This document shows positions 353 through 692 of a stretch of DNA of 64,000 nt, piece by piece. The notes below the pieces were generated by a model, which worked only from the letters and a program-made list of their open reading frames with translations, made no database searches and was not told where the DNA came from. The position numbers and the translations under genes are program-made. This DNA is from Minisyncoccota bacterium (lineage in GTDB: Bacteria > Patescibacteriota > Minisyncoccia > Phycocordibacterales > DAORIS01). How positions within the stretch are numbered: position 1 is the stretch's first letter; every line of letters begins with the position of its first letter. The stretch is taken from positions 7,497 to 71,496 of the forward strand of contig DAORIS010000004.1 of the NCBI GenBank assembly GCA_035438625.1, written 5' to 3'.

Positions 353-692
353 CATGTTACCACTTATTACTAAATGCATTGGACTGTATCTTCATCCGGT
401 ATTTCCCTTTTGCGGGGAACGTACTGGATGGCTAACGTAGCAGTCTCTACGGGTCCCAATATATTCTGACTTGCGTCAGATTGCAAAGGGTTCCCTCGGT
501 ATCATCCGATCCGTGCAAAGAATGCACGAGGAGTCCACCGAAATAAGTCAGCTGTGTCATCATGAATTACTTCATGCGACCGCCGTGATGTGATTGGATA
601 TTTTTTGTTACAGTGTGGTGAGGTACCACGTCCTCGGGGTTCAGACGGCACATGTTTCGAAACTACATATTGCTATGTAACTCAAAAACTGT
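353..692 (-). other. Putative ORF-less group I intron in 23S rRNA at E. coli position U2593.
   Basis: - The exon sequence AAAGAUACGCGAGCUGGGUUCAGACCGU is followed by 340 nt of non-rRNA sequence and then CGUGAGACAGGUUGG.
- The E. coli 23S is continuous here (GGGUUUAGAACGUCGUGAGACAG), so the break falls between U2593 and C2594, a classical LSU intron/homing site. Confidence 0.6.

Follow-up and report, generated by a model that had tools for sequence, protein, structure and literature searches.

A group I intron without an open reading frame in helix 93 of a Patescibacteria 23S rRNA gene, and a possible two-part recognition of its 5' exon

A 340-nt insertion interrupts the 23S rRNA gene on contig DAORIS010000004.1 of a Minisyncoccota bacterium (assembly GCA_035438625.1), and it raises the question of whether the insertion is an intron and, if it is, how it would recognize its own 5' exon. 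The stretch analyzed, 64,000 nt long (contig positions 7,497 to 71,496), is called the window here; 23S positions follow E. coli numbering, and intron nucleotide n is window position 693-n. Rfam LSU_rRNA_bacteria identifies a complete bacterial 23S rRNA at window 4053..61, minus strand (2228.7 bits), with a gene length of 3993 nt against a model of 2925 positions, and local alignments reveal three large inserts. A first-pass annotation made from the letters alone had placed one of these at 353-692, between U2593 and C2594, and both the Rfam alignment and a direct reading agree with it. In the local alignment the rRNA runs ...GAGCUGGGUUCAGACCGU, then 346 nt set against 6 model positions, then ACAGGUUGGUC, which makes the insert 340 nt. 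Read directly, at window 692..353, the RNA is GGGUUCAGACCGU / ACAGUUUU...GGUAACAUG / CGUGAGACAGGUUGG, or in a second rendering of the junction GGGUUCAGACCGU / ACAGUUUUUG...GGUAACAUG / CGUGAGACAGGUUGG, so that the insert sits exactly between U2593 and C2594, in helix 93. The boundaries are fixed and cannot slide because the intron begins with A while the 3' exon begins with C, and the 5' exon ends in U while the intron ends in G. The predicted ligated junction joins the 5' exon ...GACCGU to the 3' exon CGUGAGACAG, and the numbering agrees with PMC3315327, in which the I-CreI target at -9..-3 corresponds to n.2588-2594. The insert and its exon borders are as follows (LSU, large subunit; P, paired element; J, joining segment).

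Window 353..692, minus strand: whole intron, 340 nt; from the insert against the bacterial LSU model, the boundaries read directly, and the Rfam Intron_gpI match on 360-601.
Window 693..705, minus strand: 5' exon nt -13..-1 (GGGUUCAGACCGU, G2581-U2593); -13..-5 pair with the clamp strand and -6..-1 with the guide, both described below; part of inverted repeat I3.
Window 349..352, minus strand: 3' exon CGUG (C2594-G2597), P10 partner of CACG; from direct reading and alignment pairing.

We consider it very probable that window 353-692 is a group I intron without an open reading frame (ORF), which breaks helix 93 between U2593 and C2594 and is most likely removed by guanosine-initiated two-step self-splicing. 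Window 360-601 matches Rfam Intron_gpI at 32.4 bits (E 2.9e-6, 1-kb search), and no group II family match was obtained at E up to 10 in window 1-1000. The insert had been said to hold no ORF of 60 aa or more, and indeed no ORF longer than 49 aa lies wholly inside it; the two longest have no Pfam match.

Relatives were collected by scanning GTDB species-representative genomes for the J8/7-P7' motif followed by the 3' exon within 15-45 nt. At least 120 loci were found, almost all in metagenome-assembled genomes (MAGs) of Patescibacteria, Saccharibacteria, and Parcubacteria, and among them at least 105 introns at LSU position 2593 (L2593), 233-828 nt long; the family counts used throughout (105 introns, 70 members, 51 aligned) are counts among the matches listed and hence lower bounds. 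The introns fall into two classes. The first, with the exon GAACGU and the start AAAUUACAUUGCGUUC, includes Thermosynechococcus and many copies of ~720-780 nt. The second, with the exon (G/A)ACCGU, has at least 70 members including the window copy, and in 70/70 of them a CACGGCGG block lies 56-249 nt into the intron. An alignment, A1, was made of 51 distinct members of the (G/A)ACCGU class from the CACGGCGG block to the 3' exon, and the helices of the window copy were mapped onto it. Standard pairs fill 96.3% of the A1 pair cells, as against 31-43% when the 3' partners are slid by 1-3 columns, and changes on both sides occur at 33 of the 48 pairs; the observed values were reached by 0/500 shuffles on any measure. 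Such compensatory changes are found in P2, P3, P5, P6, P8, P9, and P9.0, the exceptions being the invariant parts of P4, P7, and P10. The elements of the predicted core, in the order of the RNA, are these.

Window 561..576, minus strand: P2 hairpin, nt 117-132, GUAA tetraloop; 6/6 pairs changed on both sides, 95.8% paired; loop G, A, A nearly invariant.
Window 547..552, minus strand: P3 5' strand, nt 141-146, partner nt 257-262; 6/6 pairs compensatory, 97.1% paired.
Window 496..541, minus strand: P4 (nt 152-157 with 192-197), J4/5, P5-P5a (nt 161-188), and J5/4; P4 96.7% and P5 98% paired, with compensatory changes.
Window 451..495, minus strand: P6/P6a, nt 198-242, apical GCAA loop; P6 base 100% paired, 2/3 compensatory; minimum free energy (MFE) fold.
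Window 441..447, minus strand: P7 5' strand, nt 246-252, G, bulged A, then GACUG; P7 99.7% paired, GUAGAGACU invariant.
Window 431..436, minus strand: P3 3' strand, nt 257-262; alignment pairing with nt 141-146.
Window 393..430, minus strand: P8, nt 263-300; outer pairs 5/5 compensatory, 88.6% paired.
Window 387..392, minus strand: J8/7, AAGAUA; invariant or near-invariant in 51 sequences, in agreement with the Rfam consensus AAGAUAUAGUC.
Window 381..386, minus strand: P7 3' strand, nt 307-312, CAGUCC; alignment pairing.
Window 361..376, minus strand: P9 hairpin, nt 317-332, GUAA tetraloop; 5/6 pairs compensatory, 95.9% paired.
Window 354..356, minus strand: P9.0 3' strand, nt 337-339, CAU, partner AUG at nt 314-316 (window 377-379); 3/3 compensatory, 93.4% paired.
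Window 353..353, minus strand: terminal G (omega-G), nt 340; direct reading, the intron ending ..CAUG; invariant in A1.

The putative guanosine-binding pair is G248 (window 445) with C311 (window 382), beside the bulged A247 that follows G246. The terminal P7 pair covaries in A1, being A-U in most sequences and G-C in 7 including the window copy, while J6/7 (GUA) and the adenines A159 and A191 of J4/5 and J5/4 are invariant. Only 4 nt (CUAC) separate P7 from the 3' strand of P3, which leaves no P7.1/P7.2 extension. As modeled from the alignment, then, the core is complete: P2-P9, P9.0, the P3/P7 pseudoknot, the guanosine site with its bulged A and G-C pair, J8/7, and the terminal G. Taken with the covariation, the agreement of the window copy with every one of the 78 columns conserved to at least 90%, the relatives that exceed the Rfam gathering score (below), and the lack of a group II match, this supports a genuine and apparently intact group I intron. 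The first-pass annotation had proposed a group I intron and named P1-P9, the P7 site, and a guide as the elements to look for; the core folds as proposed, and covariation among L2593 homologues, P10, and the terminal G add to the case.

The insert could instead be a relic that has lost self-splicing, which would mean that it stays in the rRNA, needs a host or trans-acting factor for its removal, or sits in an rRNA gene copy that does not function. The lack of a homing endonuclease or maturase ORF, an Rfam score below threshold, and a very stable 5' hairpin that could block P1 would all fit such a relic. We nevertheless find this very unlikely. The window copy deviates at 0/78 conserved columns, where other members deviate at up to 11, all 48 modeled pairs (48/48) are standard pairs, and the flanking rRNA is intact (2228 bits). 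Moreover, helix 93 lies at the peptidyl-transferase center, where, from established knowledge of the ribosome, an unspliced insert would hardly be tolerated.

An intervening sequence (IVS) or expansion segment, either cut out by RNase III with no ligation to leave a fragmented 23S rRNA or simply retained, would be no intron at all. Such IVSs occur in the 23S rRNA of bacteria of the candidate phyla radiation (CPR) and of other bacteria (PMC11270868, PMC4990558), and the 5' hairpin of the insert is a long duplex of the kind that RNase III can cut. Against this, the group I core covaries strongly and is accompanied by the wobble guide, P10, and a terminal G; the known IVS sites are in helices 9, 25, and 45 (PMC11270868, and PMC4990558 for helix 45), not in helix 93; and cutting the hairpin would destroy rRNA nt 2581-2593. 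We regard an IVS as scarcely credible here. With no group II match, a ribozyme core at helix 93, and ORFs of at most 49 aa that lack Pfam matches, the group II, IVS, and protein-coding readings are all unsupported.

The site is a known one. It had been described as a homing site of the I-CeuI type that hosts mobile group I introns; the second half of that description agrees with PMC3315327, PMC1995217, and PMC11270868, but the endonuclease needs correcting, n.2593 being the target of I-CreI and I-MsoI (PMC3315327). Six long members of the family contain ORFs of 143-150 aa with an LAGFLDGDGS motif, which match Pfam LAGLIDADG_1 and match I-CreI over their full length at ~1e-20, as well as I-MsoI and I-CvuI. 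No homing endonuclease was found in the window copy, in which the largest internal ORF is 49 aa and has no Pfam match. By its sequence, the window intron is thus an ORF-less member of a family whose other members carry LAGLIDADG genes of the I-CreI type.

How, then, would this intron find its 5' exon? The answer suggested by the family lies, in the window copy, 105 nt inside the intron.

Window 578..587, minus strand: internal guide, nt 106-115, CACG followed by GCGGUC; CACGGCGG in 70/70 family members.

Read in reverse complement, this block matches the ligated exons, GACCGU joined to CGUG, apart from a G.U wobble that falls precisely on the 5' splice site: GCGGUC with the 5' exon GACCGU would form P1, with G110 facing U2593, and CACG with the 3' exon CGUG would form P10, which is 98% paired in A1. 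Counted by exon position (n = 70), the guide pairs at -1 in 70 members, always as G.U, at -2 and -3 in 70, at -4 in 67, at -5 in 37, and at -6 in 35. The canonical introns at L1917, L1951, L2449, and L2500 of the same genomes have the same signature of P10 strand, G, and P1 strand at nt 5-21, which validates it as the mark of a guide. One other partner for the block was considered, namely a pairing of GCGG with the invariant CCGU of P6/J6-7 (nt 241-244), and rejected, since those C residues lie in P6 with compensatory changes and the block complements both exons.

What precedes the guide is a hairpin that takes in the end of the exon.

Window 650..692, minus strand: upper stem of the 5' splice-site hairpin with an apical hairpin (nt 6-38, GCAA loop), nt 1-43; from MFE folds; the equivalent region is one long hairpin in 70/70.
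Window 637..649, minus strand: exon-clamp strand, nt 44-56, GCCGUCUGAACCC; antisense to exon -13..-1, with nt 48-56 pairing with exon -5..-13.
Window 588..636, minus strand: linker, nt 57-105, starting CGAGGA and ending AAUCACAU; local hairpin; GAGG and (A)CAUCA motifs recur; 16 to 110 nt in the family.

When the exon is included, the window copy folds (MFE, ~-35 kcal/mol) into one hairpin whose stem has the splice site at its middle, and a repeat finder independently detected the same hairpin as inverted repeat I3 (637-660/682-705). The equivalent region folds into one splice-site hairpin in 70/70 introns (median -34 kcal/mol). Between exon -13..-5 and the clamp, 98.7% of cells are paired over the 70 introns, and the predicted clamp strand covaries with the rRNA's own variation at both variable positions in 70/70: the exon/clamp haplotypes are TTCAGA/TCTGAA (32 introns), TTCAAA/TTTGAA (17, and 7 more with a wobble), TTTAGA/TCTAAA (10), and TTTAAA/TTTAAA (2). 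The clamp is paired at -5 in 69/70 and the guide at -4..-1 in 67-70/70, a pattern that indicates a sharp switch at -5/-4, with the clamp strand holding -13..-5 and the distal guide holding -4..-1. The clamp is absent from the GAACGU class among the matches listed, where a median of 6.5/9 pairs is at chance level. The first-pass annotation had suggested a minimal intron, a term that does not strictly apply here, since the first 105 nt are an additional domain that binds the exon and precedes the guide.

A conserved linker helix (nt 57-105) was considered and dropped: minimal relatives have 16-20 unstructured nt, GAGGWWAAGACAUCAU, and the local hairpin of the window copy is not a family feature. 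No partner was found for the GAGG or ACAUCA linker motifs.

Our first reading had taken the proximal strand GCCGUCUGAACCC itself as the guide, and it was given up because A, C, or U faces U(-1) in most members while the distal wobble guide is invariant. A version of it still has to be weighed, in which nt 44-56 are a true, unusually long guide forming a canonical P1, and the CACGGCGG block serves only P10 and second-step alignment or makes a tertiary contact. In its favor, the topology is that of a canonical P1, a hairpin that closes near the 5' end and encloses the splice site. The window copy places G44 opposite U(-1) and has a CAUG (nt 39-42) that might pair with the 3' exon CGUG, and a related family at L1931 (described below) has a distal guide with A facing U(-1), so that the wobble is not sacrosanct in these lineages. 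On the other side, within the hairpin U(-1) faces A in 47 members of the family, C in 13, G in 6, and U in 4, and 49/70 have a mismatch at position -3. The distal block places G opposite U(-1) in 70/70 and is an exact wobble complement of both exons, conservation switches at -5/-4, and the canonical introns of the same genomes share the 7-mer of P10 strand, G, and P1 strand. We therefore hold a proximal guide to be unlikely and keep the distal block as the guide.

Several points weigh against self-splicing through the distal guide. Splicing itself is something we infer, from every sequence and structure requirement being present and conserved. The 32.4 bits of the Intron_gpI match, which the first-pass annotation had proposed as a check, fall below the RF00028 gathering score of 50, and a whole-window search at that score did not report the insert; that score, an operational criterion rather than a structural one, is reached by 7/15 alignable relatives (50.3-66.9 bits). 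P1 is short, with 4 bp conserved family-wide and 6 bp in the window copy, and it competes with a hairpin that nearest-neighbor energies favor. By a rough nearest-neighbor estimate for the window copy, freeing exon -4..-1 would cost ~+8.9 kcal/mol, against -8.2 kcal/mol for an isolated 6-bp P1, which is near balance. Through G44, the hairpin of the window copy can likewise supply a U.G pair at the splice site, and on this account sequence alone does not settle the first-step guide strand of this particular copy. Finally, the parts of nt 1-105 that are specific to the window are backed by folding only, as no full-length relative above 70% identity appeared among the matches listed.

The search for closer relatives bears on this last point. 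No intron among the matches listed was more than 67% identical to the window copy over 251 nt, and the closest 23S exons among the fetched loci, in Patescibacteria and Saccharibacteria MAGs, are 85-90% identical. A scan of metagenome contigs with CCGTCTGAACC N35-65 CACGGCGG was set aside, as it gave mostly chance matches in GC-rich contigs (real L2593 introns, 5/120 among the matches listed) and no close relative of the window copy among the matches listed. The window is identical (100%, 8 kb compared) to JGI contig Ga0119868_1000094 of metagenome 3300014059, and contigs identical to it are also present in SRR1145916. A search of other assemblies with proteins of the window yielded no strain variants, returning only that contig and short Logan contigs.

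A mechanism that would accommodate these features can be outlined, its catalytic steps being those of established group I chemistry. The hairpin would form first during transcription and clamp the end of the 5' exon, since the clamp strand lies only ~45 nt downstream of the splice site and the guide at least 56 nt in. The distal guide would then capture the last 4-6 exon nucleotides to make the catalytic P1. This could happen in two ways, either with the clamp helix kept and P1 abutting it, as a stacked two-part guide (a pseudoknot), or by a conformational switch between the hairpin (off) and P1 (on); both would fit the conservation pattern, and computation does not separate them. Tertiary docking would decide between the nearly balanced energies of hairpin and P1. 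An exogenous G would attack after U2593 in P1, the terminal G would replace it in the P7 site while CACG pairs with the 3' exon (P10 aligning the two), and exon ligation would restore helix 93. The part given here to the clamp is a proposal drawn from its pairing pattern.

Whether the design extends beyond this intron can be judged from the two other introns of the same gene.

Window 1027-1373, minus strand: second group I intron, 347 nt, after ~U2262, between GCUAUCCU and CCUAAAAGG; Intron_gpI 67.9 bits; ends in G.
Window 1703-2023, minus strand: third group I intron, 321 nt, at L1931, between CCUAAGGU and AGCGAAAU; Intron_gpI 24.2 bits, E 1e-3; apparently ends in U.

In both, a strand located 35-40 nt into the intron is the partner of exon -15..-4, with a small internal loop at -3/-2 and an upper stem (-34 to -40 kcal/mol); the intron strand is nt ~39-50 in the ~L2262 intron, and the L1931 intron has a 12-bp clamp. 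Candidate distal guides are CGCU followed by GCC at nt 154 of the L1931 intron, an exact match to its own exon junction, and AGG followed by GGG at nt ~80 of the ~L2262 intron, with one mismatch to the 7-mer. Among the L1931 introns of the fetched loci, 15-16 of 19 have the exon clamp, with 10-11.5 of 12 pairs (p <=0.01 vs shuffles), and it tracks exon variants. Given the conserved exons, the L1931 intron of the window ends ...GGAAUACCCU and hence lacks a terminal G; going by the title of a reference in PMC11270868, a missing omega-G has a precedent in Coxiella Cbu.L1951.

The broader proposal, then, is that CPR rRNA introns recognize the 5' exon in two parts, by an antisense clamp of 9-12 bp (exon -13/-15 to -5/-4) and by a distal, short wobble guide (3-6 bp and P10), stacked or switching. 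The two-part design is seen in all three introns of this 23S gene (L1931, ~L2262, and L2593) and in two independent intron families, and the canonical introns in the same genomes have no clamp. To our minds the proposal is about evenly poised between right and wrong. If it is true, the clamp may give exon specificity or retention in multi-intron rRNAs and so prevent exon skipping, may time splicing relative to rRNA folding, may let ORF-less introns spread by reverse splicing, and may let the excised RNA bind 23S rRNA at the peptidyl-transferase center.

The fetched Patescibacteria 23S loci (L001-L120) contain insertions of at least 150 nt at L1917, L1931 (18), L1951 (6), ~L2262 (7), L2449, L2500 (9), L2504, L2511, L2584, L2603, and L2656 (13). 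At four of these sites (L1917, L1951, L2449, and L2500) the insertions lack an exon clamp and carry their guide in the canonical place, at nt 5-21. At L1931, nine loci among others have insertions of only 193-231 nt. This ~200-nt family keeps the clamp hairpin, a guide GCUACCU, P2, P3, P7, P8, J8/7, and the terminal G; the guide places a Watson-Crick A, not G, opposite the splice-site U, and in alignment the family appears to lack the whole P4-P6 domain, which the L1931 intron of the window has. Should this hold, the insertions would represent group I-like ribozymes of unusually reduced form. PMC11270868 lists several group I sites in CPR 23S rRNA as unreported in other bacteria.

Around the gene, inverted repeats bracket the 23S rRNA, one joining 5-27 with 4086-4108 (23 nt, 96% complementary) and the other 47-70 with 4046-4069 (24 nt, 88%), as expected of a precursor processing stem. 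No 16S rRNA, 5S rRNA, or tRNA gene lies within the 64-kb window. A 5S gene is found on the same contig just past the left window edge, ~107 nt downstream of the 23S 3' end (L242 1497-1605), and with no 16S in the window the locus is a 23S-5S unit with no 16S beside it. On the upstream side of the 23S gene, a protein gene begins at a distance of 295 nt.

The presence of an intron at L2593 in a CPR 23S gene adds little, as both the site and the intron richness of the lineage are already published, and the interest of the locus comes mostly from the two-part exon recognition. The Rfam threshold misses the window copy and about half of its relatives, which means that surveys based on it undercount CPR introns. 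In this family, covariation clearly supports a second helix that binds the exon, and the guide lies 56-249 nt into the intron. Should the arrangement be functional, it would be a natural way to hold and select the correct exon end when P1 has only 3-6 bp, and it would bear on how several ribozymes splice accurately out of a single rRNA precursor where ribosome-biogenesis factors are few, and on trans-splicing ribozyme design.

The literature places group I introns at L2593 in chloroplasts (I-CreI, I-MsoI; PMC3315327), in thermophilic cyanobacteria (PMC1995217), and in CPR bacteria, where Tsurumaki et al. (J Bacteriol 2024; PMC11270868) report group I insertions at position 2593, citing Brown et al. 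2015; from its place in their site list, we take this insertion to be 23IS12. These CPR insertions share lineage, gene, and site with the window copy, are classed as group I by Rfam, and often have LAGLIDADG_1 ORFs. Several introns per 23S gene are usual, as the first-pass annotation had stated of CPR rRNA genes in general (PMC11270868; the host here is CPR-like by its nearest 23S exons), and ~45% of CPR 23S insertions are Rfam-classifiable group I introns. That survey is an Rfam and Pfam classification with no secondary-structure model, whereas the window copy is ORF-less and below the gathering score; in the searched text of PMC11270868 we found no mention of a distal guide and exon clamp.

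The L2593 introns of cyanobacteria (Synechococcus C9, S. lividus C1, and Thermosynechococcus elongatus; PMC1995217) and the Cr.LSU/I-CreI intron of the Chlamydomonas chloroplast occupy a site identical to that of the window copy, U2593 and C2594, with a similar P9 and 3' tail (..GUAAU..AACAUG) and endonucleases of the I-CreI type in ORF-bearing members. They are ~745 nt long with a homing endonuclease gene and a P7.1/P7.2 of ~65 nt (PMC1995217), all of which the window copy lacks. In contrast to its guide at nt 106 and 13-nt clamp, they lack a clamp and place their guide, GCGUUC for the exon GAACGU, ~11 nt from the 5' splice site.

The tRNA introns of Azoarcus and Anabaena (IC3) resemble the window copy in their small core lacking P5abc and in the GNRA tetraloops on P2 and P9. 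They differ in host gene, in a guide adjoining the 5' splice site, and in having no extra exon-binding helix. The nearest analogues of the distal guide and clamp are in the Tetrahymena pre-rRNA and in engineered ribozymes, and both differ in the strands that pair. In Tetrahymena, Woodson and Cech reportedly found an alternative hairpin at the end of the 5' exon, P(-1), which affects splicing by competing with P1; there exon pairs with exon, whereas the partner in the clamp of the window copy is an intron strand that covaries with the exon. In engineered ribozymes with an extended guide, the antisense reportedly pairs with the substrate 3' of the splice site. The window clamp is natural and pairs with the 5' exon upstream of P1, and in this the designs differ; what engineered trans-splicing ribozymes have in common with the window copy is a short P1 with a long antisense duplex for affinity and specificity (PMC6155759, PMC3895272). 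A limited literature search found no description of a natural upstream exon clamp, and we give equal weight to the two possibilities that the distal guide with its covarying clamp is an undescribed structural variant of the group I intron and that it is a variant already described.

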